From contig JAQBTH010000003.1 in the NCBI GenBank assembly GCA_027623425.1, positions 1 through 55,435 of the forward strand: 55,435 bases of DNA, written 5' to 3'. A program made the translations under genes and the position numbers. A model generated the notes under the pieces. It saw nothing but the letters and a program-made list of their open reading frames with translations, made no database searches and was not told the DNA's origin. Source of the stretch: a bacterium. GTDB taxonomy: Bacteria; Margulisbacteria; Marinamargulisbacteria; UBA817; JAQBTH01. Each line of letters starts with the position of its first letter. Position 1 is the stretch's first letter. Shown one piece after another: positions 2,253 to 17,142 of the stretch.

Positions 2253-2648
2253 TTAGATTTCGATACCCTTCATCAATTCGGCATCATCTATGGTTTTTCC
2301 AAAATTGGATTGTGATAATTTTTCGGGCATGCCTAACAAGAAATTCCCTGCTTTACCCACCACTTCTAAGCCCACTTCAAGCACGGCGGTTTGTTCTTCC
2401 ATTTCATAATGTGGGTATTGTTCGATCTCCTCGAGCAAGGTTTTCATATTTTTAAAATGATAGTCGTATTCATCGGCTATTTCTTTGTATAGTGCTGCAT
2501 CCGCAGATGTCACTTGAGCCGAGCGTAATTTTCTAACAAACTCAGTTAATTGAGCTAACATTTCTAAATATTTAAGCGTTAAGGCATGTAAATCAGCCTT
2601 GCTTTTTTCTCTTAATTTATCCGCTTCAAAACTATTTTCTGGAATCAT
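2253..2648 (-). CDS. Hypothetical acidic helical protein (131 aa), possibly an export chaperone
   Basis: Starts 2 nt after the rod/hook-like gene stop; amphipathic helical pattern. The function is a guess from size and context. Confidence 0.7.
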   Translation of the reverse strand: MIPENSFEADKLREKSKADLHALTLKYLEMLAQLTEFVRKLRSAQVTSADAALYKEIADEYDYHFKNMKTLLEEIEQYPHYEMEEQTAVLEVGLEVVGKAGNFLLGMPEKLSQSNFGKTIDDAELMKGIEI

Positions 2649-2650
2649 TA

Positions 2651-3535
2651 CTATGCTTTATCGATAGCAGAAAGGAATTTCGATAGCGTTGAAGAAATCA
2701 ACGTTAATGCAGACTGTACGGCGTTATAGCCTCTTTGGAGTTGAATACCTATGATGGTGGTTTCGGCTGGGTCAACGTTTGATGATTCTGCAAATCCACC
2801 ACGCACTTCCCCAAACCCCTCAGTGCCACTCACATCATACCGCATCACTTCACCCGATCCCGCATTAGTACGGTAGGTGTTGCCACTATGCGCGGTTAAT
2901 AAAGAGGGGTTTGGAATCTTGGCCAACGCCAATTGAAATAATACTTTACCTTCTGGGGCTTCGCCTTCACCAGAATCTTGAACATCTTTTCTAGCCGCAT
3001 AATTTGTGACTAAGGCGCCTGAATCTTCAAACCCTAGGTCTGTTACGTCCACTTCATCTGGGTCTACGGTAATGGCTGTTAAGGTGGATTTATCCACCGT
3101 TCCATCGTCTTTTACTTTATCCCCCATTACTTTTCGGCCGAATGAGTCAATTAATGTGCCATCGGCAGCAAAAATAAAATCACTGGCACGGGTGTATACA
3201 AAATCATTTAAGTTATCGGGTTTCAGTACAAATAGTCCACTACCTACTACCGCTGCATTTGTTGGTTCAGCAGGCCTTAAGCCACCTTGCGACCAATTGT
3301 AACCTAACGGAGAGAGTAACACACCTTGGGACACGCGCTGCGTGTTAAATGCGCCTCTATTTAAACCAGCCCCACCACCCATACGGTTAATTTGTTGGGT
3401 ATAGAGCGACACAAAGGTATATCGGGTTTGCTTGTAACCATCTGATTGAAAGGCCTGTACGTCGGCAGCTAATAATTTCATCGCTTCTGAATACGACTGA
3501 ATGGAACCTTCTATCATTTGTAACGTTTCAAACAT
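2651..3535 (-). CDS. Divergent flagellar rod/hook family protein (FlgG/FlgF/FlgE-like)
   Basis: Motifs GYK..R..F, WSQGGL, AAVVGSGLF, YTRASDF..DGTLI...G, and C-terminal G.AESSNVD.A......QRGY; strong SD AGGAGG. Confidence 0.85.
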   Translation of the reverse strand: MFETLQMIEGSIQSYSEAMKLLAADVQAFQSDGYKQTRYTFVSLYTQQINRMGGGAGLNRGAFNTQRVSQGVLLSPLGYNWSQGGLRPAEPTNAAVVGSGLFVLKPDNLNDFVYTRASDFIFAADGTLIDSFGRKVMGDKVKDDGTVDKSTLTAITVDPDEVDVTDLGFEDSGALVTNYAARKDVQDSGEGEAPEGKVLFQLALAKIPNPSLLTAHSGNTYRTNAGSGEVMRYDVSGTEGFGEVRGGFAESSNVDPAETTIIGIQLQRGYNAVQSALTLISSTLSKFLSAIDKA

Positions 3536-3566
3536 TGATTTCCTCCTGTGTCATTGTATCATAATC

Positions 3567-5360
3567 CTACGCGGCTTCTCGTATACTCGAGGTCTTAATT
3601 GGTTCGCCCTTATTATGTGCATCGATCAATTTGCTCTCACCCTTTATTCTGTCGTATGTTTCAGACAAGATTTTATGGTTTTGCGCATAATATGGACTAG
3701 GGTGCACTTCCATGGCAATTTCTAGCTGACTTATCTCTTCTCTGATAACAGCTGCCATTTCGATATTTTTACGATCTCTCACGCGATTCATTTGGTCTTT
3801 TTTGATCTTATAGCCCATTTTGCGCAATAATCGAATAATAGTCGCGCGGTCATTCTTTAATTTTGAAAATGCTGGCCCAGATAGTTTATGCAATGTTGCT
3901 TGCTCTAAATACCCGCCCTCTAAGCGATCCATTAACTGTATTTTAGCCAATAACTCGCCTTCTTTTCGCAGCTGCTCTTCTTTTTCATCTGTGTAAACAC
4001 CCAGTTTGATTAAGCCATTTTTCATGCGTTTCATTTTAAACGAAATGTCTATTTTTTCTTTGAAGTTGGTATTTAGCGATTTCAGCATGTATAAATTGCG
4101 CAACTTATCTTCTAATTGCTCGCCGCGATTAATATAGATTTTTTCTATTTCCTCTTGCCTATCTTTGCCTCTTGGGTCGCCCTCCCTAAAGTTCATATTG
4201 GATTGGCCAATTGGCGGAATAAATTCTGTTAGCCCCAAATCATCGATGGATTTATTTAATTTTTTCTGCAGGTCGGCTTCATCGATAATAACGCCTGCAG
4301 CGGCGGCGGCCTTCATGATCTTGGCGGTGCGTTCAGAGAATTCGTCTAAGGTTAATTGCCCTAACGATTGTTTGGTAAATTGATTCGTTGTTTCATCATA
4401 AAGTAAGGCCTCAAGTTCCTGGCGAAGCTCAATACCTAACCCTTCCATAATGCCGTTTAGGCCCCCTTTAACGGTTCCGTCTTTGGCCACTGCTGATAAG
4501 GCGTCTGCATTATTTTTGTGGTCAAACTTAGCCGATATCGCGCCTTCTGCATCGCCCTCACCTTGTGAAAAGAAGAATTTGATCAAACTGGATTTTAACT
4601 GCCCAACATATTGCTGCTTTACCATCTGTCCGACATTGGTTTCCATGCTTTGAATCTGTTTTAATGTCACCCCAGTTTTCTGAAGCTCCTTTTTGATCTT
4701 CTCCATCTTCTGTTTTTCATGGGGGTTTTGGGATACCACATACTTACCGAGTGCTTCGGTGTATTCTTTTAACCCCTTTTGTTGCCCTATCATTTGCTCT
4801 TTGTTGGTGTTCGCGCTCTGGCGCGCTGATTCTGCTTTTGTGTTTTTGGTATTACGCTTAGCCAATTCTAAAAGTGGGTTCCCGTCGTCTTCTTGAACTA
4901 GCCCTTCTTCTCCGGCGCCACCTTCAATAAATTCTGAGCGTTCTGTTTTACCCTTTGGCTTTGATTGCAATGCCGATTGAGACAACTGCACTTGGTCTTC
5001 TGGGTCATCGCCCTTTTTAAATTGATTTTCCAATTCCTGCACCAATTTGGCTTGTAATTCTTTGTTGCTTTTCTTTAATTCATTTTGACCATTTTGCTGT
5101 AGTGATTTCTGCATGATTTCATCTTTAGCGTCTTGGTGATCCGTACCCAACATTTGCTGAATTAAACTGTCGGATTTTTTGGTTTTACTTCCCTCTTTTG
5201 CGTCTTTACCCTTTTCCTTTTTGCCACGCAAATCAAGCTCTTCAACCATGGACTCGCCGGCAATCTCAGCTGCAAAAGTTGCATCCGGCTCAAACGAACG
5301 TTTGTTCTGATTCTGATTTGTATTTATATTCGTATTATTTAAATTTAGTCCGTTTGACAT
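3567..5360 (-). CDS. Hypothetical protein (597 aa), low-complexity charged N-terminus and helical/coiled-coil C-terminus
   Basis: Long ORF, SD AGGGG, operonic spacing; no recognisable motif. Confidence 0.8.
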   Translation of the reverse strand: MSNGLNLNNTNINTNQNQNKRSFEPDATFAAEIAGESMVEELDLRGKKEKGKDAKEGSKTKKSDSLIQQMLGTDHQDAKDEIMQKSLQQNGQNELKKSNKELQAKLVQELENQFKKGDDPEDQVQLSQSALQSKPKGKTERSEFIEGGAGEEGLVQEDDGNPLLELAKRNTKNTKAESARQSANTNKEQMIGQQKGLKEYTEALGKYVVSQNPHEKQKMEKIKKELQKTGVTLKQIQSMETNVGQMVKQQYVGQLKSSLIKFFFSQGEGDAEGAISAKFDHKNNADALSAVAKDGTVKGGLNGIMEGLGIELRQELEALLYDETTNQFTKQSLGQLTLDEFSERTAKIMKAAAAAGVIIDEADLQKKLNKSIDDLGLTEFIPPIGQSNMNFREGDPRGKDRQEEIEKIYINRGEQLEDKLRNLYMLKSLNTNFKEKIDISFKMKRMKNGLIKLGVYTDEKEEQLRKEGELLAKIQLMDRLEGGYLEQATLHKLSGPAFSKLKNDRATIIRLLRKMGYKIKKDQMNRVRDRKNIEMAAVIREEISQLEIAMEVHPSPYYAQNHKILSETYDRIKGESKLIDAHNKGEPIKTSSIREAA

Positions 5361-5372
5361 AACCTGCCCCCT

Positions 5373-5609
5373 TTATCGCTTTGCCGAAAGATTTGTTGAT
5401 ATATTCATTAATTCCATGCCTTTTTGAACGAGTTCCTTTTCCTGCTTTTTATTGATCTCTGCTTCACGTTGGCGCTGCAACTGTTTTACCCGAGATTGAA
5501 CCCTCTCAATATATATATCGAGTCTTGTGAGTTTTTCTTGCGTCTCTTTTCGATCTATGAGGCTATTTGTATCATCGCTGATAATGGTTACATTGTTACT
5601 TTTCATCAT
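5373..5609 (-). CDS. Small coiled-coil hypothetical protein
   Basis: ATGA overlap with the upstream stop; heptad-like charged sequence. Confidence 0.65.
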   Translation of the reverse strand: MMKSNNVTIISDDTNSLIDRKETQEKLTRLDIYIERVQSRVKQLQRQREAEINKKQEKELVQKGMELMNISTNLSAKR

Positions 5610-6403
5610 TGATAGTCCCTTATTAGTTCCAATGTTTGTTTCTCTAAGAGTAGTTCTTGCAGGATTTTTTTGACCTGATCTTCCTTAATTTCATTCACCT
5701 TTTCGCTGGTGTAATAATTAATACCTGTCAGTAGGTCCATTTGTTTCATTAATTGTGAACGCGTTTCTTTCAAAATCTTCTGACGGGCCTTATCTTTCTG
5801 TGACGAGGTAAATGCGGATATCAGCTCAAAGTTATACTCATTTTGCTCGAATAGCATTTCATTGTCCTCTATGGCGGCTTTGAGGGCCTTCTTCTGCATA
5901 ATTCGCAGCTCATCGGTGCTAACACCCATTAAACTTAATACAAATTGAATCATACCAAACTTAATTTCCGCATATTTTGCCATTAAAAAGTTATGGGATT
6001 TCGCCTCAATAAAGAATTTTTGATATTTGACTGACAAATCGGCCACTTTCGAGCCCATGTCGATCTTGTAACCTAAGAAATTTACGATACGGTCACGCGC
6101 GTGTTCCACCGGAGCCGCTTTACCTAAATTGCGCTTTTCCTGCGGCTTAATAAAATAATCACCCGTCTCATCTTTTCCCCATTTAAACTTGGGTTTTGCC
6201 CCAGGTGGCTGCTTGGCTCTATTGGTATTGACCAACACCGCTTCGTCCTTAGTATCAACCCCTTTTACAGTGGTTTCTTCGCGTTTTTGAGCGATTTCAG
6301 ACTGAAGCTTTTTATAGTATTGATTGTCCTTAATCTTATTAAATCGACTGTGTTGGTCGACCTGACTGGGATCATATTCGGCTATGCGATCTTCGCCGGC
6401 CAT
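5606..6403 (-). CDS. Hypothetical helical protein (265 aa)
   Basis: SD AGGGGG; coupled to neighbours; no recognisable motif. Confidence 0.8.
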   Translation of the reverse strand: MAGEDRIAEYDPSQVDQHSRFNKIKDNQYYKKLQSEIAQKREETTVKGVDTKDEAVLVNTNRAKQPPGAKPKFKWGKDETGDYFIKPQEKRNLGKAAPVEHARDRIVNFLGYKIDMGSKVADLSVKYQKFFIEAKSHNFLMAKYAEIKFGMIQFVLSLMGVSTDELRIMQKKALKAAIEDNEMLFEQNEYNFELISAFTSSQKDKARQKILKETRSQLMKQMDLLTGINYYTSEKVNEIKEDQVKKILQELLLEKQTLELIRDYQ

Positions 6404-6416
6404 ACCTTAACCCCCC

Positions 6417-6965
6417 TTACCCTTTTTTACGATTCGATGCTCGGCGTTCTGCCCGTGCTTTGGCTGCCATTTCTTCATGGTGCCTCATGTCATCGGCTTC
6501 AACTTCCTTGCGCTCTTTTTTAGTGGCTTCATTTCTCTGCTTTGTGGATTTATGTAAACTGCGATTTGACATCATTGCCATATTAAATTCCAAAAGTGCT
6601 GTACCATGCACAAGGTTACGCTCCGCAGTTGTCAGCACACCTGCTTCGCTTCTGTTATCGCCATCGCCTTCGATGCCAATTGAACCGGCGCCATCGCCAC
6701 CGCCACGTAATGCGTCAAAATCATCGCCACCGCCAATTGCACCAGCACTGTCATTATCGCCGATATTTGGTCGATTGGCTTGCGCACTATCTAAATCGAT
6801 CGATTCATCGGCAGCATCGATATCTTCAAGGTATTTTGAAAACCGTGCGGCAAATTGAGTTGGATCGCCTACCTTTTCAGCGGCGGCACGATCGAGACGT
6901 TCTTGAATGAACCGATCTAAGTATTCCGGGTCAGAGCCCATAAATCCTACTAGATTAATTGTCAT
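6417..6965 (-). CDS. Hypothetical protein (182 aa) with Gly/Asp-rich linker and charged C-terminal helix
   Basis: SD GGGTG; operonic spacing of 11-13 nt. Confidence 0.75.
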   Translation of the reverse strand: MTINLVGFMGSDPEYLDRFIQERLDRAAAEKVGDPTQFAARFSKYLEDIDAADESIDLDSAQANRPNIGDNDSAGAIGGGDDFDALRGGGDGAGSIGIEGDGDNRSEAGVLTTAERNLVHGTALLEFNMAMMSNRSLHKSTKQRNEATKKERKEVEADDMRHHEEMAAKARAERRASNRKKG

Positions 6966-6976
6966 AACGAATCACC

Positions 6977-7297
6977 CTAACCAGATAACATATTGTCGAG
7001 CTTTTGCTCAAAGTTACGAATAAATGTAAATACGTTGTTTACGAGCTCTAAGTTAGCTTGCTGAAAGTTCATATGAACTTGGAATACTGTCATGCCTGCT
7101 ACTGATTGCGTATCAACTTTGGTTCCATCGGAAAGAGTGACCTCTGATCCATCTTCAAGCTGCGATGCAAATGCATTTAAATCTTCATAAAACTGCCCCG
7201 TCGCCTCTCTAGTTAAGCCATAAATATCTAAATTAAATTGTTGGTCATTACGGCGTACGTTAATATGTGAAAAGAATGCTGTTGATGATGCTGTCAT
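6977..7297 (-). CDS. Small helical-hairpin protein, type III needle/inner-rod (SctF/SctI)-like
   Basis: SD AGGAGG. C-terminal amphipathic helix (MTVFQVHMNFQQANLELVNNVFTFIRNFEQKLDNMLSG) resembles needle/inner-rod C-termini. The CDS is secure; the function is tentative. Confidence 0.5.
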   Translation of the reverse strand: MTASSTAFFSHINVRRNDQQFNLDIYGLTREATGQFYEDLNAFASQLEDGSEVTLSDGTKVDTQSVAGMTVFQVHMNFQQANLELVNNVFTFIRNFEQKLDNMLSG

Positions 7298-7355
7298 AGT
7301 CTTTCCTCCTTTATCTTTTTAAATTTTTAATCATTTCGTGTTTTAGCTTGTTGTG

Positions 7356-7377
7356 TGGAGACCCATAAGGGCCTCCA
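7356..7377 (-). promoter_or_regulatory. Intergenic stem-loop after the 83-aa gene (mRNA stabiliser or weak attenuator)
   Basis: Minus strand TGGAGGCCC-TTAT-GGGTCTCCA: 9-bp stem with one G-U pair and no downstream U-tract. Confidence 0.6.
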
Positions 7378-7391
7378 TCACGATGTTAGTT

Positions 7392-7643
7392 CTACGAACC
7401 AGATACTTTACGACCTTGACCTTTAACGTGGTCAGATGCGTTTTTAGCAATACCTGCTGCATACTCTGTTAGTGATTGACCAACTTGTACCGCTGTGGTT
7501 GCTAGCGTCGCCGCTGAAATACTTAAAGATTGCGCGCTTGAAGATGAGTTGGCTGCGTTCTCTAGGTCGAACAAGGCATTCTCATATTTCTTTGCGTGTG
7601 CGTCTACTGCGTCTTTTAAATTCTGAAAACTTACACTAGTCAT
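7392..7643 (-). CDS. 83-aa Ala/Ser-rich protein, type III needle subunit (SctF)-like
   Basis: First gene of the operon, SD AAAGGGG. Size and helix-turn-helix pattern resemble the chlamydial needle protein CdsF as recalled from memory (not aligned computationally). Confidence 0.5.
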   Translation of the reverse strand: MTSVSFQNLKDAVDAHAKKYENALFDLENAANSSSSAQSLSISAATLATTAVQVGQSLTEYAAGIAKNASDHVKGQGRKVSGS

Positions 7644-7848: not shown

Positions 7849-8418
7849 ATGTTAGATCGAGCCCACGATAGTCCCCTTTTGAATTATTACTATAATAACC
7901 AAAAGGAAAGTTTACTAAATGCAATTCTTGAAATTATGGAATCTGGCGGCGTTCCGCCACTGGATGATATGTTTCATATTTTGGCAGAAACCGAGGATGT
8001 GGAAATCCTGGGGCTTAGTCTTGAACTATTATATTTAAATCATGAGACGTTTCAAAAACAACTGTTTGCAAAGTTTAATGAGTCTGATTCAGATCGCCTT
8101 AAACTTTGGATACTTGTTGTGCTTTGCATTCAACCGAATGAAACCACCATGTACTTTATCGTTGAAATCTATATAAAGCATGAGGAATTTCGGCCTCATA
8201 TCGCCAAAACAGCTTTTAAACAAAAAATCAAAATGTTTATGGGCCTCACTCGGTACGTAGAGATTACCGATCTCTCGGAAGACGATGAACAAATCGTGTT
8301 GGATTTACTCGAAACCGTGCCTCGTTCTACGATTATGCGCATTGGCGGTGGGTTAGGAATGCTTAAAATAATGGATTATTACTATAAAGTCCCCCCTAAT
8401 AAACGTCGCCAAGATTAA
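7849..8418 (+). CDS. Hypothetical Leu-rich helical protein (HEAT/ARM-like pattern)
   Basis: 189-aa ORF filling the gap between two minus-strand operons; possible TTGATA-N18-TATAGT promoter at 7810-7839. Confidence 0.75.
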   Translation: MLDRAHDSPLLNYYYNNQKESLLNAILEIMESGGVPPLDDMFHILAETEDVEILGLSLELLYLNHETFQKQLFAKFNESDSDRLKLWILVVLCIQPNETTMYFIVEIYIKHEEFRPHIAKTAFKQKIKMFMGLTRYVEITDLSEDDEQIVLDLLETVPRSTIMRIGGGLGMLKIMDYYYKVPPNKRRQD

Positions 8419-8471: not shown

Positions 8472-10310
8472 TCATCTTTTCCAGTAGGGCAACCAAAGCA
8501 TTTCGATAAGGGCTTCATTGGACTCACACAGGGTTTGGGCTACCAATACAGGGTCGGTTTTTAGCAACGTCTTAAGTTTGGCTATTTTAGCGCGACTTTG
8601 TGCAATAAGCGGGCTATCAGGGAGGTCTTTGGCGCTTAGCAACTGCTCTTCATTGTGCAATAACACGTTTATCCACATCAAAAAGGGAAATACTTGTAAG
8701 GCGGCGTCACTCTCCAACACATCTTGCTGTTCATCGATCGAAAAGGTAACATAACTGTCTCTTTGACCCACCTCACCCCTCTCTACATATCCTTTTACTT
8801 CCTCTAGAATACGTTTCAACCTCTTTACACGTACTCCTAAGGCATCTAAATCAGAAATTGGCCGAAGAAAACTGGCGTTAAAGGTGGTTTTGGTCACGTA
8901 ACGGCCATAGGGCGCAGGTCGGCCTGAAGTCAGCTCATTCACTACGGCTTCGGACTGTTGAAGCACCGTAAATAACATGCACATATTCCCTTTTGCCTCA
9001 CCGGTTTCAATAAAATGATTGTATTCGGATACGTCTTCTTCATCGGCACCATCCGCTAACTGTTCTAAAAAGTCATATTGCAGTGAAAGGGCTGGTAATA
9101 ATTCCGCTTTTACCCACACCTCCAGGCCCTCTTTCCAATAGGTGGGCATGGCAAAACTCTTTGTTGCGTGCCTATTTTCAATGATCTGAGTCGGGTCAAA
9201 GGGCGTGTTTAAACGGTGCGTCACAATATGAGCGGCCATGTTATGAACCATGCGTGTATTCCATTTCCAAATTTGGTCCAAATACGGTGTGTTTGAGTCT
9301 AAAACGAGACTATTTGGCATTACCTCATTTACCCCATCTGCAAAGGCATGAGCCGCAGACTGGTCATTGCCATATTTAAGTAGCGCGTATGGAAATATAT
9401 AGTCTGGAAAATCCAAGTTACAATGGGGGGTTGTGCATGGCGTCAGTTCTTCTAAATCCGACAGTACCAACTGATTTTCAGGCAACACTACCATGTTATT
9501 CCAACTGGCATTTCGATGCAACGATGGGGGCGATAAAACCAAGAAATTGGCCACGCATTTTCCTGCTTGGTGTAAATAGTGTGTAAAGGTGGGCTTATAG
9601 GACGAATCAAACGCCGGATTATCCGTAAATGAATAGCGAATGGAACCCGGGCTAAGTCGCAACAATTCGCCCAAATCAAATTTAAAATCAGGCCCAACCA
9701 AGGCCATTGGCACCGCGCCACAGGGCAACAATTGTTGTTTTTTTTCGTCATCATCTAATTTATCGTGAAGTTGGCATAAGTGATTATGTTCCGCCTCAAT
9801 GCCTTCCCAATCGCTGCCACCTGTAATGCGTAAATGGGCTTTAAGATAGGCCCCTGCCTGGTTTCTTAAATGAAACGATGGAAAGCCACCGGTTGGTGCG
9901 CCAGCCCCTTTTAACTCAACGACAAATTCCGCGTCGGCTAGTCTTGCGATTAGTGGTTCGTAGTTGGAGTCTGGTGTGGCTCGGTGTAAAACGACGCCCG
10001 ATCGCGACATTTCTGGCGAGTCTTCTGGGGCCACCATCAGCAGAGCCCAAAGCGACTGTGTGGCCGCAGGATCAGTGGCGAGTACCTGATTGTTTTGCAT
10101 CAGCTCAGTTAGTTGTGGTGGTAATTCAGTGGCGATAGTGGCACGTTGCCACGGTTGATCACTATCTTGCACGCTTAAGGGTACAATGTGGGTCACCATT
10201 TGCGTGTCTAAATTGATATCGCGAAACGACGGCGAATCTGAATACACCGGTGTTATTTTGTGTGCCTTATTCCGGCTAAATCCAAGTAAGTATGGGGTCA
10301 ATTTGGCCAC
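8472..10310 (-). CDS. SelO/YdiU-like atypical kinase-fold protein, paralog 2
   Basis: Motifs VELKGAG, LLRLSPGSIRYSF, HRNASWNNM, LSDLEE in SelO order; overlaps the upstream paralog by 13 nt. Confidence 0.65.
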   Translation of the reverse strand: MAKLTPYLLGFSRNKAHKITPVYSDSPSFRDINLDTQMVTHIVPLSVQDSDQPWQRATIATELPPQLTELMQNNQVLATDPAATQSLWALLMVAPEDSPEMSRSGVVLHRATPDSNYEPLIARLADAEFVVELKGAGAPTGGFPSFHLRNQAGAYLKAHLRITGGSDWEGIEAEHNHLCQLHDKLDDDEKKQQLLPCGAVPMALVGPDFKFDLGELLRLSPGSIRYSFTDNPAFDSSYKPTFTHYLHQAGKCVANFLVLSPPSLHRNASWNNMVVLPENQLVLSDLEELTPCTTPHCNLDFPDYIFPYALLKYGNDQSAAHAFADGVNEVMPNSLVLDSNTPYLDQIWKWNTRMVHNMAAHIVTHRLNTPFDPTQIIENRHATKSFAMPTYWKEGLEVWVKAELLPALSLQYDFLEQLADGADEEDVSEYNHFIETGEAKGNMCMLFTVLQQSEAVVNELTSGRPAPYGRYVTKTTFNASFLRPISDLDALGVRVKRLKRILEEVKGYVERGEVGQRDSYVTFSIDEQQDVLESDAALQVFPFLMWINVLLHNEEQLLSAKDLPDSPLIAQSRAKIAKLKTLLKTDPVLVAQTLCESNEALIEMLWLPYWKR

Positions 10311-12082
10311 CTTTGGTAGGGTAATGCGATCAGATCATGAACGGCCTTGTTGCCTAGCGCGAACGCCGCTTTGATGGTTTCGGGATCCGTTTTGAGTTGC
10401 TCATAGAGGGTTTGGCACTTTGTCAGCGAGTCGCTTAGCACTTTGCGTGTTGCCGCGTCCCACTCATTCGATTTTAAGGCGCCCTCTAAAAACCGTGTTT
10501 CGGTGTTGCAATACACTGACAGCACACCAAGAAACGGATAGGCGATAAGGCCAAAATCAAAGAATTTAATATTAATGCGTAAGCGTTGATGTTCGGTTAA
10601 GTAGTGGGTATCAATGGGAATTTTTCCTGTTGCTACGGCGGCCTTCATTTCCTCTATCCATCTCGCGGCCATTTGCTCGCGCTCATACACCTCATAAGAG
10701 AATTTAAACTCGCCTAAAAGTAAATTCTCAATTTTTTGAGCGGTGATATACGCGCCAAACTCACTGGCCTGATCGCTTGCAGGTTTATGGGTGTCTACCA
10801 CCTCATTTTGGTGCTGCAGAGTTGCGTTTTTGGCGATTAATTCTTGCAATACTTTGCGTTGCTTTTCCATACTTGGAATACCGTGGCGCTCTACCCATTC
10901 GAGTGTGGGCATAGAAAAATAATCCGAGTGGGCAAAATAATGAATTGCCGTTACATTTTCATCAATAAAATCCGTATTCATGGTCATATTTAGCCGGGTT
11001 TTAATCACATTTGGCGCAACTTTTTCCATCATATAGGCATTATATAGGCACAAATCGGTTGTGGGCGCATCTTGAGCCCATTTCGATGCGCACCCCACAC
11101 CTGCTTTTAAGCCGCTTATAAACTGGGGCGTCCACATATGCCGAAACGGGTGGGTATGCAAGTACGGTGGGTACAAACATTCCATCAAGTCCAAATTACA
11201 ATGACCGGTGGCCAAGGTGGTTAGCTCTTCAAAATCCGTTAATACGTAGCGATTCTCACTCACATACACCATATTATTCCAGCTATTATTTCGGTGTTGC
11301 GCGGGCGATGGCAATGAAAAGTACTTACTGCTTTCTTTGCCTGCATCAATCATAAATTGAGACTGACTTCCGCCTAAGTGCTGCGTCATTGCCGGGTTGT
11401 TATAGAAACTAAATCGCAGTGTGGATGGCGCTAAACGTAGCAGCAGCGCCATGTCGATGCGTTGGTTTTGTGTATGAATTGCGAATGGCATTAATCCAAG
11501 CGCTCGCATGTCTTCCCCATCGGGTATCTGGTCTTCGATCGCCTTCATATTGCATAGGTTTAAAAATTCCCGTTCTGCTCCAGCCAGCCCCATTCCACCC
11601 GTCACACGTAAATGGGAATTATTGGTACCTGCCTGGTTTCGAAAATGAGTGTGTGGAAATCCTCCCACTGGGCTTCCGACTCCTTTGGCTTCGATCACAT
11701 ACTCGTAGCCACTTACTTTGAGCGTCATTGGTTCGAAGCCGGTATCTGTCTTTCTCATCAATGCTCCCATACGGGCCATGGCCACTTGGAAACGGTCGAC
11801 GGTGTCGGCTTTTGGCATATACATTAGCGCGTAATACGGTGATTTTTCTTCGGTCGTGGTGCAAAAGAATTGGTTTTTCGCGATTATCGTCTTTAGATCG
11901 TCAGGCAAATAGTCCTTATCATCGGTTAAGTACCATTGATTGGCGCTTTGCACGATTTCTAGTGGAATTAGCGTCGCTGAATACCATTCTCGCTTGATGC
12001 CCATATCTTGAAAATGAGGCGAGTCGCCCAATAATGGAACTATTTTTCCGTTTTCCCGATATAAGCCAATAATATGTTTCAC
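10298..12082 (-). CDS. SelO/YdiU-like atypical kinase-fold protein, paralog 1
   Basis: Motifs IEAKGVG, AEREF, LLRLAPSTLRFSF, HRNNSWNNM, LTDFEE; GTGA overlap with the GT4 stop. Confidence 0.65.
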   Translation of the reverse strand: MKHIIGLYRENGKIVPLLGDSPHFQDMGIKREWYSATLIPLEIVQSANQWYLTDDKDYLPDDLKTIIAKNQFFCTTTEEKSPYYALMYMPKADTVDRFQVAMARMGALMRKTDTGFEPMTLKVSGYEYVIEAKGVGSPVGGFPHTHFRNQAGTNNSHLRVTGGMGLAGAEREFLNLCNMKAIEDQIPDGEDMRALGLMPFAIHTQNQRIDMALLLRLAPSTLRFSFYNNPAMTQHLGGSQSQFMIDAGKESSKYFSLPSPAQHRNNSWNNMVYVSENRYVLTDFEELTTLATGHCNLDLMECLYPPYLHTHPFRHMWTPQFISGLKAGVGCASKWAQDAPTTDLCLYNAYMMEKVAPNVIKTRLNMTMNTDFIDENVTAIHYFAHSDYFSMPTLEWVERHGIPSMEKQRKVLQELIAKNATLQHQNEVVDTHKPASDQASEFGAYITAQKIENLLLGEFKFSYEVYEREQMAARWIEEMKAAVATGKIPIDTHYLTEHQRLRINIKFFDFGLIAYPFLGVLSVYCNTETRFLEGALKSNEWDAATRKVLSDSLTKCQTLYEQLKTDPETIKAAFALGNKAVHDLIALPYQRWPN

Positions 12083-13146
12083 CGTGCTGCAATTTCCTTT
12101 AATTTCTCTTCAAATTTATCTACTTCTGTTTCAATTGTAATGGCCTTTGCTACTCGATCGCAATTTTTAGCCAATCGATTGTAGGTGTCCGCATCATCCA
12201 GCGACTCAATTGCGGCCTGCCAATTTTCCAACACAGTAAACTCATTAAGTGCAATGGCACTGTCGTTTATGGCTTCTTTTACGCCACACACATTACTCAC
12301 TATAGCAGGCACATTGTTGTATGCGGCTTCAAACAACACTCTAGGCAAACTGTCTTTTACTAAAGATGGCACGATTACAATCCTGCTTTTTGCGTAAATC
12401 GGCCTCATATCTGTGGTGTTTGGCACGTACAACACATTTGGGTATTTATAGAAATGAAAATCATGATATCGCGGGTCTACCCACCCCTGCACCACCTGGA
12501 ACTGCCGATCGGGCATGCGTTGAATCAGCCACTCTAACACTTCGGCGCCTTTGGCCGGCATTGGGTTTATCATGGTGATGTAGCTCGGTTGTCTGTCTGC
12601 CGCGTTAGACACACAAAACTCGGGCTCCGGCGCCGAATAGACCACAGTCGCCTCTTTCCCCCACCGCACCCGCGTCTGCTCTTTCATGTACTCGCATACG
12701 CTGAAGAGCGCTTTAAACTCGTCCTTCACGCCATCTAACATGGTATACACGTTCTCACTTCGAATAAAACACACATAGTTTTGCGACTTGTCTTTAAAGA
12801 ACTGGGTCACATCGGTGTCAAAATACGGGTTATGCATCATCACAATATCTGGCTTAAATTCCGCTAATAAACGCTCGTATTTTGGAAAATAATCCGCCTC
12901 TTTTACCACCCGAAGCCGCACGCCATCCCACTCATAATGCAACTCTTCATCTTCTATGCGCCCGTGAAGGCCTGTTCCAGCAAGCTCTTTGAGCAAGCGG
13001 TCAAAGTCAAACGGGCCTGTTGTAAATAGGGTTTCTATTTGGTGCCCGCGTTGTTGCAGGTGCTTTACGAGCACTTGGTTACTTAAATCCGCCCCACTTG
13101 GATACAGCGGAAATGGTTTTCTGTAATTTGCGAGTACGATTTTCAA
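12079..13146 (-). CDS. Glycosyltransferase family 4 (GT-B)
   Basis: N-terminal KIVLAN...SGA..S...L...L..RGH; KG motif; PS..D.LPRV.FEA....P.I.S...G..E. Start reassigned to TTG 13146 (SD AGGAG, TTGA overlap). Confidence 0.88.
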   Translation of the reverse strand: MKIVLANYRKPFPLYPSGADLSNQVLVKHLQQRGHQIETLFTTGPFDFDRLLKELAGTGLHGRIEDEELHYEWDGVRLRVVKEADYFPKYERLLAEFKPDIVMMHNPYFDTDVTQFFKDKSQNYVCFIRSENVYTMLDGVKDEFKALFSVCEYMKEQTRVRWGKEATVVYSAPEPEFCVSNAADRQPSYITMINPMPAKGAEVLEWLIQRMPDRQFQVVQGWVDPRYHDFHFYKYPNVLYVPNTTDMRPIYAKSRIVIVPSLVKDSLPRVLFEAAYNNVPAIVSNVCGVKEAINDSAIALNEFTVLENWQAAIESLDDADTYNRLAKNCDRVAKAITIETEVDKFEEKLKEIAAR

Positions 13147-14282
13147 TTTGAATCTCCTGTATTTGGGCGTTTGCTTTTGGCATGTCTCAAACAAAAGTCG
13201 TGTAGAGAAGCCGCACGTTGGAAGCGCGGGTACGCCTGCAAAACAGGCTCTATTTCGGGACAAACGCGAGCGGACTCTCTTGTTAGTATGTGACTGTGAG
13301 CGAGAAAAAACAACCGTAGAGTGTGACATGGCAGTAGCGATACGGCCACATCAAATTCAGGCGTCACAATAAGCGGCATGGCATTATCAAGCACCGTAAT
13401 TAACAATTCAGAAACTAAAATCTTATCGGGCATCTGAGCATCCATATACTGGGACGTCAGTGTGGGAATCTGTCCGTTTAAAGCCTCTTTTAATACCTCG
13501 GTGTAGTGGGCCAAAGCTGCGGCACTTTTATCTAACCTTAATCGCTCCCATGCCGCGTCTCTTTTGGTATGAAATGGGCGTGTTTGGTGTGGCGCGTCAT
13601 GGTGTTGGATCAATCGGGTTACCTGCGTTAAATGACTATAGTCCGTGTTTAGCGGCACGGCCTTGCTCTTTAACATGTGAATGGTAAAACTGGTGCGATC
13701 TAAACTGCTCTGGCGAATCAATCGCGGCGCCAGTTCCCCACAATACTGTGCGATTTCAGACTCATTGGCGTAGTACCGGCTATTATCCAACTGGTAAAAT
13801 TCGTTTTCCTCTAACAGTTGGTCCGACAACATGTTAAAGATCACGCCCAAGCGCGCCACTTGATAGGCCTTTGCAATCATCTGGCGCACATGGGCCTCAT
13901 GATCCTGTTCAATGATGGTCATCACACCACTCATAACCACCCAATCTGGCGCTATTTTGGGCGTATACTCTAGTAAATCTTGTATATGAAAGTGGTGGTG
14001 AGGAAATTGAGCCTCAGCTTGTTTTACGGCGAATTCAGACACGTCTATGCCGTCATAATGTAGGGGAGCTGTACCACGCACATGGCGCAAGTAAGCGAGT
14101 AATTCGCCGGTGCCGGCACCGCAGTCTAATACCGATAGATTGTGGCAGGAAATTGGCCCTGTGATCTGTTCGAAGTTTGTGGCGAGAATGGCGTAGTGCG
14201 ACCAATCGTTTGTACGAAGGAGCGTCGGGGAACCGGACTGTGCGGTGGCCTCGTAATGGGCTTTATTTCTTGTGCTTTTCAT
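13143..14282 (-). CDS. Class I SAM-dependent methyltransferase with C-terminal extension
   Basis: VLDCGAGTG motif I, YDGIDVS, DWVVMSG; start reassigned to ATG 14282 (ATGA overlap). Confidence 0.85.
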   Translation of the reverse strand: MKSTRNKAHYEATAQSGSPTLLRTNDWSHYAILATNFEQITGPISCHNLSVLDCGAGTGELLAYLRHVRGTAPLHYDGIDVSEFAVKQAEAQFPHHHFHIQDLLEYTPKIAPDWVVMSGVMTIIEQDHEAHVRQMIAKAYQVARLGVIFNMLSDQLLEENEFYQLDNSRYYANESEIAQYCGELAPRLIRQSSLDRTSFTIHMLKSKAVPLNTDYSHLTQVTRLIQHHDAPHQTRPFHTKRDAAWERLRLDKSAAALAHYTEVLKEALNGQIPTLTSQYMDAQMPDKILVSELLITVLDNAMPLIVTPEFDVAVSLLPCHTLRLFFLAHSHILTRESARVCPEIEPVLQAYPRFQRAASLHDFCLRHAKSKRPNTGDSN

Positions 14283-15613
14283 CGGGCAGCAATCCGCAGA
14301 GCTAAACGACCAAATCGGCATGTGGTATCTGTTTCATCATAGGGAATACGACGTGTCACATCGGCATCGTATTCCACGTACTGACTTATCATGCATGTTC
14401 GCCCCGTTTGTTGAATTAATTCAATCACGTCATCTTTAGAAATCGGCATTAAATATTGGGCAACATCCTGGTATTCCATGCATAATAACCCATAAAATTC
14501 AGGAAAGGCCATGGTGTTTGTGACCAGCACAATCTCGTTGTTATGTTGGATACATAAGTCTTGAATAACGCCCTGCCAATTGTCCTGTTTTGCACACTCA
14601 TCGATGCTCCATAGTGGCGTTTCTTTATTTTGAATATCTAAAACAGACGCGGCCCATTCTTTCTCGGCGATCTGCTGCTGGGTATTGATCTGCATCATCC
14701 CTTCTCGGTATAACCGTATCTTTTCAAGTATCCGCTTTGTTTCTACTGCATCGACTAAATTAAGGCTCTTGATACACGCGCTTTCGGCCTCATCCCACGC
14801 AGCGATTTTCATGTATTGCTGGGCTAATAAATACTGTCCCATGGCCTCTTTCACATTGGGTGATTTATCACGAATGGTAGGGAATAAGTCCTCTAAACTG
14901 TATTGCTTTAAAATGCGGGCATACACATGTTTTAAGTAGGGCCATTCAAATGCCATTTCTTTATAGGTCTTTGGCCTTTGGCGGTACTGATAAATAATCT
15001 CATCTACCCGCACCGTCTCAATTTTGCCTGCGATTCTGGCAAAATGCTCATGATCCTGCGAGCGTTCAAGTATGACATCTAATTTTCCCCATCGGTCATA
15101 GACGGATTTCTGAATTAAAACGCCGCCCATATAAAACGGACATCCCACCAAAATAGTTGCCATAAAAGCATCCGGGTCACGGTAATATTGATCGGGTTTG
15201 AACTCCCCTATGGCTGTTTTTCCGTCTGCCGTCACGTACCGGGTAATGCCATATACCAGCTGTGCGTCTTGCACCTCGATTACCTTGGACAGTAGATGGG
15301 TCAATCCATCCGGAGTTAAACGGTCGTCACCCCCCACCCAACACACCCATTCACTACACACTGCATCCAAGGCCGCGTTCATTGTTTGAGGTCGCCCCAG
15401 ATGCCCTAATTGCAGCACTCTGTCTGCATGGGATTTACTTACCAGCACCGTTCCATCATTAGACCCGTCATCAGCCACTATAATTTCGATGTCTTGCCTG
15501 GCTATCACTCCAGATGAAACGGCATGTTCAACTGCAACCTGGCAACTTGTAAGACACTCTTCTATGTGGTCTTCAACGTTATATGCTGGAATTAAAATGG
15601 ATACGGTAGTCAT
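14279..15613 (-). CDS. Glycosyltransferase family 2 with TPR-like segment
   Basis: VSILIPAYN, ADDGSNDGT, WVGGDD, SQDHE; TPR-like helix pair QYLLAQQYMKIAAWDEAESACIKSLNL. Confidence 0.88.
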   Translation of the reverse strand: MTTVSILIPAYNVEDHIEECLTSCQVAVEHAVSSGVIARQDIEIIVADDGSNDGTVLVSKSHADRVLQLGHLGRPQTMNAALDAVCSEWVCWVGGDDRLTPDGLTHLLSKVIEVQDAQLVYGITRYVTADGKTAIGEFKPDQYYRDPDAFMATILVGCPFYMGGVLIQKSVYDRWGKLDVILERSQDHEHFARIAGKIETVRVDEIIYQYRQRPKTYKEMAFEWPYLKHVYARILKQYSLEDLFPTIRDKSPNVKEAMGQYLLAQQYMKIAAWDEAESACIKSLNLVDAVETKRILEKIRLYREGMMQINTQQQIAEKEWAASVLDIQNKETPLWSIDECAKQDNWQGVIQDLCIQHNNEIVLVTNTMAFPEFYGLLCMEYQDVAQYLMPISKDDVIELIQQTGRTCMISQYVEYDADVTRRIPYDETDTTCRFGRLALRIAAR

Positions 15614-17142
15614 TAACTAAAATTATCGGTAATAAACTGCTGCGTCGTATAAAGATGGTGCGTTAATTCATGGGTCTCAAATAATCGGTATAAAAAAGAA
15701 TCGGGATGCACCACCACTTTTGGTAAGGCTTGCCCGCATTTATTGTATTGTTTTAAGCTTGAGCCAAATAGGTGAAATAGAACACTGGAATTGGACGTGT
15801 TCTCATAAAATGCAACATCCTTTGGCCCCATTTGGCGGGTGTAACTAAAGCGCATATCGCAAGTAACTGGACATATGTGCTCATAGGGCACGATTTTAAC
15901 ATCATGCGCGCTAAAGTCAGAGTGATGAAAGACCTTGGTGACCAAATCCGGTCCAATGCAGCCCCAATCTTTCGGATTATAGTGCAATGGCATTTGATTC
16001 AGAATCTCGTGGATGAATGGATGTTGAGCCTGAAATGCCAAAACACCGTTGCAAACCCCTTTTGGATCGCCTGACATGGTTTCATAAAAAAGGCTATTTT
16101 CTAATGCTTTTGGTACTTTTTTTGCCAAAAACACGTCAGTATCTAAGTAAATACCACCATATTTAAATAAAAGCGCGAATCGTAACACGTCAGTTTGATG
16201 GGAAAACCAAAACGGATGAGACTCGGCATCTGGTGATGCGGCAATCGTCCACGTTTCAAGCGGGGTGTTTTGTATAATATCCGACACTTTGTACGGCACG
16301 ATGGTGACATGAGTTGATGCCTCGCCTAAATGGGAGGCGTTTAAACCGTTACTAAACAGATAAATCGGTTTGTCCGGGTACACCTTTGCTGCGCGTTCTA
16401 TGCACGCCAAGTAAATGGGATCTAAGGTCTGTGCCGTTGTGCTCCAAATCATGATTAAATGGTCGTCCACACTTGTGGCTTTAGATAAAGGGTAACTTAG
16501 ATCGTGTTCTGGTTCCGGTGCGAGTTGCGGTGGGGTGCTGTTTGTTTCAGGATGTATTAATCCTGAACTTAGCGTCGCGATGCAGCGTTGCAGTGCTTTA
16601 AAAGTGCTTGGATTGATTGGGTTTGAAATCGCGTCGTGTAACAGCATACGCGCGCGCGCCACATTTCCCTTGGTAAATTCGCAAATACCTTGCAAGTAGG
16701 GAATCGTCACTGAGAGCAGTTGTTGGTATTTTTCATTTGATTCTAAGCGTTGATACATGGGTAGAGCCTCTTCAAACCGCATTGTACGTTCATAGAAAGC
16801 CGCTAACTGAAATATGGCGTCATGGTTATCCGAATTGTCTTCAATGGCCTTGAAACAGCTTAATTCGATACGCTGCCCGTCTAGGAGTGTTTTTGTTTGT
16901 GACACTAAGGATTGTTCACTTGTGCCGTCGTCGGGTATGGCGTCTAAGATGCGTGAGGCATCAGCCATGCGACCATCGAGTAGCAAACACAGTGCTTGGG
17001 CCGCTTGCAATTCAGGGTCTAACTCTATCAGATGTGAATTGGCATCCAATAAGGCGCTTACATCTTTGAACTTCTGACCTTGTAATAGGGGTGCTAGAAC
17101 GGGCTTAAATAATTCAATAGTGTCGTACCGGTGCATAAGCAC
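15613..17142 (-). CDS. TPR-domain DXD glycosyltransferase (GT32, alpha-1,4-glycosyltransferase-like)
   Basis: TDVLRFALLFKYGGIYLDTDV, NGVLAFQAQHPFI and WGCIGPDLVT; N-terminal TPR-like repeats. Confidence 0.85.
   Translation of the reverse strand: MLMHRYDTIELFKPVLAPLLQGQKFKDVSALLDANSHLIELDPELQAAQALCLLLDGRMADASRILDAIPDDGTSEQSLVSQTKTLLDGQRIELSCFKAIEDNSDNHDAIFQLAAFYERTMRFEEALPMYQRLESNEKYQQLLSVTIPYLQGICEFTKGNVARARMLLHDAISNPINPSTFKALQRCIATLSSGLIHPETNSTPPQLAPEPEHDLSYPLSKATSVDDHLIMIWSTTAQTLDPIYLACIERAAKVYPDKPIYLFSNGLNASHLGEASTHVTIVPYKVSDIIQNTPLETWTIAASPDAESHPFWFSHQTDVLRFALLFKYGGIYLDTDVFLAKKVPKALENSLFYETMSGDPKGVCNGVLAFQAQHPFIHEILNQMPLHYNPKDWGCIGPDLVTKVFHHSDFSAHDVKIVPYEHICPVTCDMRFSYTRQMGPKDVAFYENTSNSSVLFHLFGSSLKQYNKCGQALPKVVVHPDSFLYRLFETHELTHHLYTTQQFITDNFS

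Follow-up and report, generated by a model that had tools for sequence, protein, structure and literature searches.

A tandem pair of SelO-like kinase-fold proteins beside glycosyltransferase genes in a Marinamargulisbacteria genome, candidate nucleotidyl transferases of a new family

What might two adjacent proteins of ~600 residues do at the end of a run of sugar-transferase genes, when neither matches any Pfam family (E up to 10) or NCBIfam family? The window considered here is the whole 55,435-nucleotide stretch that was analysed, from an uncultured bacterium, and both genes lie on its minus strand. P0002 (594 aa, GTG start, 10298..12082) is followed by its more diverged paralog P0001 (612 aa, GTG start, 8472..10310), the last gene of the run, with 13 nt shared between its start and the end of P0002. 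BLASTP aligned the two proteins end to end over 620 columns with 27% identity and 46% positives (E 6e-75), a similarity well outside what chance would give. The first-pass annotation had described tandem ~600-aa paralogs with common motifs, and all of the listed motifs were recovered in both proteins, with coordinates verified by translation. The genes are indeed adjacent and paralogous over their full length, but a quick tree did not place P0001 and P0002 as mutual nearest relatives; the duplication is therefore old, or one copy was acquired. Related genomes have a single copy, which is orthologous to P0002, and in the tree P0002 clusters with the G003 copy; the closest relative of P0001 is another family member, P0003, at 71% identity.

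An AlphaFold2 model of P0002 reached a pLDDT of 95.4 and a pTM of 0.93. Residues 1-360 (11003..12082, minus strand) were modelled as an N-terminal beta region and a two-lobed kinase-like catalytic domain. Among 48,161 chains searched with VIA-align, the top structure was SelO from P. syringae (6eac_A; Z 12.7, rmsd 4.6), with 259 residues aligned at 15% identity between model residues 12-358 and chain residues 8-366. The runners-up were NIS synthetases and Bud32 (Z 9.4-9.8) followed by aminoglycoside kinases (Z ~8), which places SelO ~3 Z units above all true kinases. Similarly, Foldseek ranked SelO/YdiU structures first to fourth (E 4e-4 to 1e-3, probability 0.96-0.99). The predicted fold of P0002 is thus protein-kinase-like, as the annotation had proposed, and its nearest solved structure is SelO. 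The likeness to SelO/YdiU (PF02696; PDB 6eac, 6k20, 6lna) covers the N-terminal region and both kinase lobes, with the motifs in equal order.

The C-terminal regions differ. Residues 361-594 of P0002 (10301..11002, minus strand) constitute a family-specific domain of ~235 aa that ends in LPY, and from residue ~360 onwards the model is almost entirely helix, which bears out the ~250-aa helical tail noted earlier. Folded alone, this domain reached a pLDDT of 89.8, but no structural relative was found, the best match being designed helical bundles at Z 6.2. An LPY is present near the C terminus of both paralogs (…ALPYQRWPN and …WLPYWKR). SelO instead ends in a Cys/Sec motif, which the accessible text of PMC3281104 describes as frequent in that family, not universal; the C-termini of P0001 and P0002 contain no Cys, and the redox motif is absent.

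Alignment of the family on SelO suggested that the catalytic machinery is retained. In P0002, the motif KGVGSPVGGF (11657..11686, minus strand) aligns with lKGgG of SelO and contributes K133, equivalent to the beta3 lysine (SelO Lys113). R216 and R223 lie in LLRLAPSTLRFSF (11405..11443, minus strand) and correspond to SelO Arg176 and Arg183, with the same alignment register and the same spacing of 7 residues. The catalytic loop HRNNSWNN (11273..11296, minus strand) includes N265, at the position of the kinase HRD aspartate, and N270, the counterpart of SelO N253. D283 in TDFEEL (11222..11239, minus strand) corresponds to the DFG/DYG aspartate, SelO Asp262, and aligns with the 'iDfg' column of SelO/MchC and the DFG of BIKE. 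E172 and H263 align with SelO E136 and the His of HGVMNTDN. The equivalent P0001 segments, on the same strand, are KGAGAPTGGF (K134; 9882..9911), LLRLSPGSIRYSF (R218, R225; 9627..9665), HRNASWNN (N272; 9495..9518) and SDLEEL (D285; 9444..9461), and HCNLD is present in both proteins. Motifs of SelO/YdiU cited in the annotation (lKGaG, mRVApsHLRFG, HGVMNTDN, DYG) were found in the same order in the aligned E. coli YdiU chain, and the motif-by-motif correspondence with SelO stood in profile alignments.

Conservation of these residues contrasts with a mean identity of 14% per column across the 83 aligned sequences. K133 is kept in 37/38 core and 42/42 distant members (79/80 non-gap sequences overall), E172 in 81/81 non-gap sequences, R216 in 35/36 and 42/43 (77/79), R223 in 36/36 and 43/43 (79/79), N270 in 36/36 and 40/42 (76/78), and D283 in 35/35 and 40/40 (75/75). 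Nine positions were invariant in a 63-sequence alignment, and both P0001 and P0002 keep every family-conserved residue. By alignment, the SelO-type Lys, Glu, Arg pair, Asn and Asp are present in the family. Roles for K113, E136, R176, R183 and D262 of SelO are given in the accessible portion of PMC8097203, where Arg176 and Arg183 hold the gamma-phosphate of a flipped ATP.

The loop itself is distinctive: HRNxSWNN replaces HGVMNTDN of SelO, and TD(F/L)EE replaces DYG. Both loops start with His, and neither has the HRD aspartate; SelO carries HGV at this point, according to the available text of PMC8097203 and PMC3281104. N265 aligns with the HRD Asp of BIKE ('IHRDLKVEN'), and the column holds Asn in 36/37 core sequences and Ser, Thr or Asn in 36/42 distant ones, in which Asp is outside the three commonest residues. 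Just before the metal-binding Asn, SelO has Asp, 39/42 distant sequences have Glu and 32/36 core sequences have Asn.

At the level of sequence, the similarity of the family to SelO is marginal. Using hhalign, an N-domain profile of the 83 sequences yielded P 0.0025 against 11 SelO sequences, P 0.0044 against 9 MchC-like sequences (reversed control 0.27), and P 4.3e-5 against SelO and MchC merged (probability 69%, 147 columns, K133 to D283). Reversed-sequence controls ranged over 0.27-0.9, the core family alone gave P 0.2-0.3, and a single MchC sequence produced no signal against the family. No SelO/YdiU chain appeared in the best 60 of 192 family-profile matches, and 0/38 distant relatives matched PF02696 at E 0.001. 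MchC, with P 3.9e-10 against SelO, is much nearer to SelO than the family is to either. One distant relative scored 0.89 with the Atlas row 'MchC protein', which we treat as a lead only. Overall, the proteins most likely form a third, very divergent and unclassified branch of the SelO/YdiU/MchC group, farther out than MchC, and their absence from both Pfam and NCBIfam agrees with the earlier suggestion of a new family. In a separate observation, the genome also has a true SelO gene, on contig 103 of G000 (PF02696, E 4.3e-110), whose product was the only protein of that genome to match this model; P0001 and P0002 did not.

With slightly better than even confidence, we predict that P0001 and P0002 are active SelO-type enzymes that bind a flipped NTP, transfer an NMP and share a pathway with the neighbouring glycosyltransferases. 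NMP transfer is predicted because SelO is the best structure, its active-site residues are aligned and the HRD aspartate is missing. A nucleotidyl transferase is favoured over a phosphotransferase because that aspartate is absent while the arginine pair that contacts the gamma-phosphate in SelO is conserved. In the proposed mechanism, with the flipped pose deduced from residue homology, K133, E172, R216 and R223 would hold the buried gamma-phosphate of the NTP while N270 and D283 bind the metal. AMP or some other NMP would then pass to an acceptor, with release of pyrophosphate. The acceptor might be a protein hydroxyl, giving AMPylation or UMPylation as in SelO/YdiU, or a carboxylate subsequently joined to a sugar hydroxyl, as inferred for MchC/MceJ. 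Substrate choice would fall to the helical C-terminal domain; distant relatives have in common with the family only the N-terminal part (P0002 residues 1-360).

NIS siderophore synthetases offer a chemical parallel to the second option. These ATP-dependent enzymes form an acyl-adenylate, chemistry that would resemble the carboxylate-adenylating variant of the proposed P0002 mechanism. SbnC, AcsD, AsbB and IucA/C were the second-best structures (252-277 residues, Z 8.1-9.8), but their domain order is different, no sequence similarity was detected, and among the top Foldseek hits only AcsD appeared, at rank 38.

MchC/MceJ, from microcin H47/E492 maturation, has also diverged from SelO and serves a tailoring pathway that includes a glycosyltransferase, and the portions of PMC7472721 and PMC3281104 that were available report that MceIJ/MchCD links C-glycosylated enterobactin to the microcin peptide. 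Like the P0002 family, MchC/MceJ is an accessory gene of patchy distribution, and the marginal score of the family profile is about the same for MchC-like proteins as for SelO. Of the MchC-like loci fetched, a GT2 gene lay directly downstream at 2/8 plasmid loci and an annotated acyltransferase beside the gene at 7/9. Pfam searches detected no HlyC-type acyltransferase (MchD/MceI), microcin precursor or ABC exporter among the window neighbours or the related loci scanned.

The genomic neighbourhood bears on the proposed role. Both genes belong to a run of overlapping genes on one strand and occupy its 3' end; the run begins with the first gene of a variable island, encoding TPR repeats and a DXD glycosyltransferase (Gly_transf_sug / Gb3_synth by Pfam; 15613..17142, minus strand). 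A GT2 glycosyltransferase (14279..15613, minus strand; PF00535, E 7.7e-17), a SAM-dependent methyltransferase (13143..14321, minus strand; Pfam Methyltransf_12/25/31) and a GT1/GT4-type glycosyltransferase (12079..13329, minus strand; PF00534, E 1.2e-8) follow, the stop of the last overlapping the start of P0002 by 4 nt. The pair had been placed inside a glycosylation operon; the overlapping same-strand run with sugar-transferase genes is real, but the pair sits at its 3' end. It adjoins flagellar-type genes: in this genome an accessory island with four sugar-modifying genes is inserted between serA and the cluster of flagellar type, and the pair is its tail. From this position, P0001 and P0002 probably share a pathway with the glycosyltransferases, and their target is possibly an exported subunit of the flagellar-type apparatus.

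Alternatively, the gene context may be coincidental, and the proteins free-standing accessory enzymes, for stress, defence or host interaction, in a variable spot, a reading that concerns role and leaves the chemistry as proposed. The family is rare, with 92 cluster representatives among 1.84 billion, and patchy, with 8/146 genomes of the phylum carrying it, 7 of these 8 as a single copy, a count that lends no support to the heterodimer suggested in the first-pass annotation. At one locus the gene is present in G002, G005 and G006 and absent in G007 and G008, of a related genus, which retain serA and the flagellar-type cluster; because these two genomes are without the gene at the same locus, we regard it as accessory. 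Glycosyltransferases adjoin the family gene in only 3/8 genomes. In three genomes it directly follows serA and no glycosyltransferase accompanies it, and in G036, G037 and a pair of short metagenome contigs (L047, L048) the genes around it are unrelated. Around 10 distant relatives, 51 neighbours included no common family, with no glycosyltransferase among the 25 of 90 families listed. Against coincidence, flagellar-type genes lie nearby in 5/8 genomes, and frames overlap with a glycosyltransferase in three genomes representing two or three lineages. One such case is G003, where a methyltransferase-GT2 fusion overlaps the family copy. Two separate families of the class have homologous GT1 partners: in G045 (L046), a GT1 (3510-4583 of L046) with 30% identity (E 3.6e-59, BLASTP) stands next to a family member and is followed by fliH, fliI and fliJ, an independent context of flagellar type. 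PADLOC defence models gave no match. The link of the family to glycosylation or an appendage is weak, and coincidence, while on balance doubtful, has an appreciable chance of being correct.

A different chemistry is conceivable within the same fold. As canonical phosphotransferases, whether glycan, small-molecule or protein kinases, P0001 and P0002 would hold ATP in the conventional pose and phosphorylate a sugar or glycoprotein intermediate made by the adjacent glycosyltransferases. WaaP is a kinase of this sort in LPS core synthesis, and POMK and Fam20B are eukaryotic glycan kinases. Consistent with this possibility, the overall fold is common to WaaP, aminoglycoside (APH), macrolide (Mph) and homoserine kinases and Bud32/Rio (Z 7-9.6), the genes stand among glycosyltransferases, as WaaP likewise works among them, and the kinase-core Lys, Glu, Asn and Asp are conserved. 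The family profile also matched the segment of NAK kinases from catalytic loop to DFG (BIKE E 3.6e-4, AAK1 1.2e-3). In contrast, WaaP, APH, Mph and Bud32/Rio need the catalytic-loop aspartate that is Asn in the P0002 family, and every true kinase scored below SelO. From the part of PMC8097203 available, these kinases would also be without the SelO-type arginine pair, which the family conserves at identical spacing. We consider a canonical kinase unlikely. Least probable, and rather improbable, is that the proteins are pseudoenzymes, serving as a scaffold or regulator such as an accessory subunit of the adjacent glycosyltransferase with nucleotide at most a ligand: the HRD aspartate is missing, the core family has Asn in place of the acidic residue that precedes the metal-binding Asn in SelO and the distant relatives, and a helical domain of this size could serve to bind other proteins, but 83 otherwise divergent sequences show little or no variation at Lys, Glu, both Arg, Asn and Asp, as is typical of a maintained active site, and the same set supports catalysis in SelO (PMC8097203, in the text available).

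SelO-type NMP transfer therefore remains our preferred account of the pair, and a more specific version of it is offered as a speculation that we hold to be a long shot. The family would comprise SelO-type nucleotidyl transferases or ligases that, with a GT4 partner, decorate one of the exported subunits of a flagellar-type apparatus that has no flagellin, either by attachment of AMP or UMP or by joining a glycan to a protein carboxylate in an ATP-dependent, MchC-like reaction. If true, this would be a post-translational modification that is not known from filaments of flagellar or type-III-exported kind. In that case the wider 'HPEN' branch, which occurs in DPANN archaea and Omnitrophota, would be a clade of kinase-fold enzymes with NMP transfer, so far unexplored, in symbiotic cells of ultra-small size.

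Two overlapping genes on the reverse strand encode the proteins under study, the 594-aa P0002 (10298-12082, GTG start) and its 612-aa paralog P0001 (8472-10310), whose ORFs share 13 nt. An alignment spanning both proteins from end to end shows 27% identity (E 6e-75), and translation placed every motif that the first-pass annotation had listed for both paralogs at verified coordinates in each. The GTG start of P0002 lies over the stop of the upstream glycosyltransferase gene GT1 (12079-13329, same strand) in a 4-nt overlap, and genes for a SAM methyltransferase, a GT2 glycosyltransferase and a TPR+DXD glycosyltransferase precede GT1 on that strand, within 12079-17142. As listed, the methyltransferase and GT1 ORFs overlap by 187 nt (13143-13329); GT1 translation probably begins at a start codon further downstream. 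Further upstream come a serA-like phosphoglycerate dehydrogenase gene and then an rpsI-rplM-truA-rplQ-rpoA-rpsD block. Promoter-like sites between 7300 and 18600 occurred at chance level (20 found versus 21.3 expected); terminator-like sites in the same interval numbered 20 versus 11.7 expected, none of them placed so as to mark operon ends.

Pfam-A and NCBIfam held no model that matched either protein, even with the cut-off relaxed to E 10, and phmmer with P0002 returned nothing from all PDB sequences. A word-index homolog search recovered only the near relatives P0003 and P0095, which are 71% identical to P0001 and 78% identical to P0002, respectively. When 1.84 billion cluster representatives were searched exhaustively with phmmer, 92 proteins matched at E <= 1e-3; tightening the threshold to 1e-10 left 46, and to 1e-30, 29. 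About 30 of the 92 are full-length relatives of 550-630 aa, hereafter the core family. The weaker matches have only the first ~300 residues in common, embedded in proteins of 370-3082 aa, and no Pfam family covered this shared region in the 38 distant proteins examined. Positions conserved in at least 90% of an 83-sequence alignment comprise (P0002 numbering) T75, R104, G106, P118, E131, K133, G134, G136, G140, G162, E172, R216, P219, R223, N270 and D283; R104, G106, K133, G136, G162, E172, R223, N270 and D283 are invariant in a 63-sequence alignment. P0001 and P0002 both keep all conserved family residues. The catalytic loop reads H-R/Q-N-x-S-x-N-N in the core family and x-x-S/T-x-H-P-E-N in the distant (HPEN) branch. 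Giant proteins with an internal SelO-like domain, from Omnitrophota and an uncultured bacterium, include P0052 (2897 aa), in which it is combined with GNAT, ARMT1-type phosphatase and GlpX-like domains, P0060 (3082 aa, L066 3831-13076) and an 1855-aa protein (L067 31-5595). PADLOC defence models matched neither the two window proteins nor six distant ones.

The first-pass annotation had proposed a SelO-like kinase fold, and both structure and conserved catalytic residues now back that reading. An AlphaFold2 model of P0002 built from an 83-row alignment was of high confidence (mean pLDDT 95.4, pTM 0.93), and Foldseek against the PDB ranked Pseudomonas syringae SelO (6eac) and E. coli YdiU (9jyn, 6lna) first (E 4e-4 to 1e-3, probability 0.96-0.99), followed by AAK1/BIKE and other protein kinases. 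VIA-align agreed: among 48,161 representative chains the best match was SelO, with Z 12.7 and 4.6 Å rmsd over 259 residues at 15% identity, superposing residues 12-358 of the model on 8-366 of the chain. NIS synthetases and Bud32 formed a second tier (Z 9.4-9.8), and aminoglycoside/macrolide kinases, WaaP and Rio a third (Z 7-8.8). Folded alone, the C-terminal 234 residues of P0002 gave a helical domain (pLDDT 89.8) whose best structural match, to designed bundles, reached Z 6.2, below the level that the tool treats as meaningful for helical proteins. SelO's own C-terminal part was absent from the structural matches of this domain, which, as modelled, counts as one with no recognisable structural relative.

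Profile comparisons located the relationship at the level of individual residues. Searched against PDB sequences, the family profile matched NAK kinases over the segment from the catalytic loop to DFG (BIKE, E 3.6e-4), aligning HRN with HRD, N270 with the loop Asn and TD283F with DFG. With hhalign, P values were 0.0018-0.0025 against 11 SelO proteins (the PF02696 matches of related genomes), 0.0044 against nine MchC-like sequences (E. coli CFT073 and eight plasmids) and 4.3e-5 against the merged 20 SelO and MchC sequences, the last at 69% probability over 147 columns running from K133 to D283. Reversed-sequence controls gave P 0.27-0.9; for scale, SelO and MchC score P 3.9e-10 against each other. 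Without the distant branch, the core family gave no significant score (P 0.2-0.3), and the signal therefore depends on the diversity that this branch contributes; no signal came from comparing one MchC sequence on its own with the family profile. A protein-language-model atlas offered two further results, leads only: for P0002, clusters with PF02696 on 14% of members, and for one distant relative an 'MchC protein' cluster at 0.89.

In the hhalign alignments, with SelO numbering taken from residue spacings in a YdiU/SelO alignment, K133, E172, R216 and R223 correspond to SelO K113, E136, R176 and R183, and H263, N270 and D283 to the His of HGVMNTDN, N253 and D262. SelO Lys113 coordinates the gamma-phosphate of the flipped nucleotide, a contact stabilised by Glu136; Arg176 and Arg183 likewise hold the gamma-phosphate, and Asp262 is part of the DFG motif (PMC8097203). 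SelO has no HRD aspartate (PMC8097203; Dudkiewicz et al. 2012, PMC3281104), and the core family resembles it in this respect, with Asn in that column in 36 of 37 sequences. Just before the metal-binding Asn the groups differ: SelO has Asp there, 39 of 42 distant relatives have Glu, and 32 of 36 core members have Asn.

P0001 and P0002 are outside PF02696 as defined: its HMM misses both proteins, and the window's genome, G000, has a bona fide SelO gene at another place (contig 103, 6121-7515, PF02696 E 4.3e-110). Of 41 related genomes searched, 16 had a PF02696 match. What the pair shares with SelO is the fold, the motif order and every residue assigned to nucleotide or metal binding, the two arginines specific to the flipped-ATP pocket among them, and on these grounds we read the two proteins as a third branch of the SelO/MchC group, more divergent than the other two. 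We infer that the conserved residues converge on one pocket. Predicted from the modelled fold and the catalytic residues, nucleoside monophosphate (NMP) transfer would be the likeliest chemistry, and we hold it with moderate confidence.

The family is sparsely distributed. Searching with a single protein gave matches in 9 of 61 related genomes, one of them weak and 70 residues long. A profile search (E <= 1e-5) detected the family in 8 of the phylum's 146 genomes, and the eight belong to one class; many of the genomes are incomplete, and an absence therefore means that no match was found. Pattern scans detected the HPEN branch at seven loci of DPANN archaea (Nanoarchaeota, Woesearchaeota, Micrarchaeia and unclassified archaea), at two loci of Omnitrophota and in one uncultured bacterium. 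A locus scan with alignment A4 matched nothing in genome or metagenome contigs, and one with alignment A8 found three metagenome loci. Marinamargulisbacteria include a host-associated species, according to a paper on placozoan symbionts (PMC6784892).

Among the eight family-bearing genomes of the phylum, only the window's carries two copies; a near relative known from protein clusters alone has both paralogs. A quick maximum-likelihood tree of 42 rows, which left out core fragments below 480 aa (P0023, P0030, P0034-P0041), used only five distant relatives as outgroup and did not resolve the basal branches, joined P0002 and P0095 to the single copy of G003, a genome of the same order (SH-aLRT 89), and P0001 and P0003 to the family protein P0020 (SH-aLRT 97). 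The genes described at first pass as tandem paralogs are adjacent and 27% identical, but their separate placement argues that they are not recent tandem duplicates and that P0002, of the two, is orthologous to the ancestral copy. With a single copy in seven of the eight genomes, any P0001/P0002 heteromer would be limited to the window's lineage.

We compared the junction between serA and the downstream flagellar-type cluster (window 12079-17142) with five other loci (L035, L036, L037, L044, L045). Four genomes of the same order carry a family gene at this junction: in G005, G002 and G006 it comes immediately after serA and without a glycosyltransferase, and in G003 it overlaps a gene for an 812-aa methyltransferase-GT2 fusion. 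G007 and G008 belong to the genus of those first three; in both, serA abuts the flagellar-type cluster, and neither a family gene nor a tblastn remnant was found. In G004 the cluster lies at another place. Within the window's order this spot is variable: the family gene is an accessory insert there, accompanied by glycosyltransferases in some genomes and not in others, and the flagellar-type cluster does not depend on it. The contents of the spot range from four sugar-modifying and two SelO-like genes here, through the fusion and one SelO-like gene (G003) or one SelO-like gene alone (G002, G005, G006), to none (G007, G008).

G045, from a different family of the class, has the order lgt, family gene, GT1, fliH, fliI, fliJ; a metagenome contig, L046, matches it at 96% identity, and this GT1 is 30% identical to that of the window (E 3.6e-59). 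The GT1 gene is two ORFs in G045 (L033 10830-11903) and an intact 357-aa frame at L046 3510-4583, on a contig 93-96% identical; one of the two sequences has a frameshift or an assembly error. In G036, G037 and two short contigs the family gene has unrelated neighbours, and the 51 neighbours of ten distant relatives included no common or recurrent family. Two MchC-like relatives of SelO, encoded on plasmids of Vibrio and Photobacterium, are followed by a GT2 gene. These 'SelO family' genes (L054, Photobacterium; L055, Vibrio) have an HlyC-type acyltransferase gene upstream and the GT2 gene downstream, an arrangement from which the E. coli mch cluster differs. Setting the pair in a glycosylation operon, as the first-pass annotation did, is close to correct for the window. 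Among homologs, glycosyltransferase coupling recurs but is not universal, G002, G005 and G006 having none.

The genes downstream of the pair form a conserved cluster that encodes small and coiled-coil proteins (2253-7643, reverse strand, with a further part at 7849-8418 on the forward strand), also present in L032, L035, L036 and L043-L045 and inverted relative to serA in G002 and G005. It encodes an 83-aa protein (one to three copies in relatives), proteins of 106, 182, 265, 78 and 131 aa, a 597-aa coiled-coil protein and a 294-aa FlgE/F/G-type axial protein, the only one with a family assignment and the one clear flagellar component (TIGR03506 FlgEFG, 94.6 bits; PDB matches to FlgE/FlgG). 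The cluster ends with a gene that runs off the window (1-2118, reverse strand) for a protein of more than 706 aa with a transglutaminase-core/CEP76-peptidase-like region, whose homologs of 668-881 aa occupy the same position in L032, L035 and L036. Elsewhere G000, which is 90% complete, encodes FlhA (C30:16359-18329, E 8e-249) and FlgEFG-type proteins, and neither Flagellin_N nor Flagellin_C was found in it. Its export apparatus of flagellar type may build something other than a flagellum, for which the 83-aa paralogs are candidates as a filament or needle-like subunit; alternatively, flagellin may be unassembled or too divergent for recognition. We hypothesize that P0001 and P0002 act on this flagellar-type apparatus.

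No earlier description of such a SelO-like family emerged from the full-text literature, from titles and abstracts or from passages of PMC3281104, and a full-text search found no work joining SelO, flagella, AMPylation and glycosyltransferase. KINtaro comprises 72 kinase-like families, 32 of them without an entry in domain databases (PMC10870513), and may already catalogue this family, whole or as its HPEN branch.

Kinase-fold enzymes are known to act beyond phosphorylation, as in AMPylation by SelO, UMPylation by YdiU, RNA capping by NiRAN and glutamylation by SidJ. The family described here keeps the SelO catalytic set, including the flipped-pocket arginines, yet is invisible to SelO profiles, and it adds a new helical domain and a coupling to glycosyltransferases that recurs in several lineages. 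It is therefore a candidate for a further activity of the kinase fold, and a tractable one, with a high-confidence model and clear sites for mutants. The family is rare, a new, divergent branch within a known kind of enzyme, and it extends the SelO-like branch into poorly known groups: the phylum of the window's genome, DPANN archaea and Omnitrophota.
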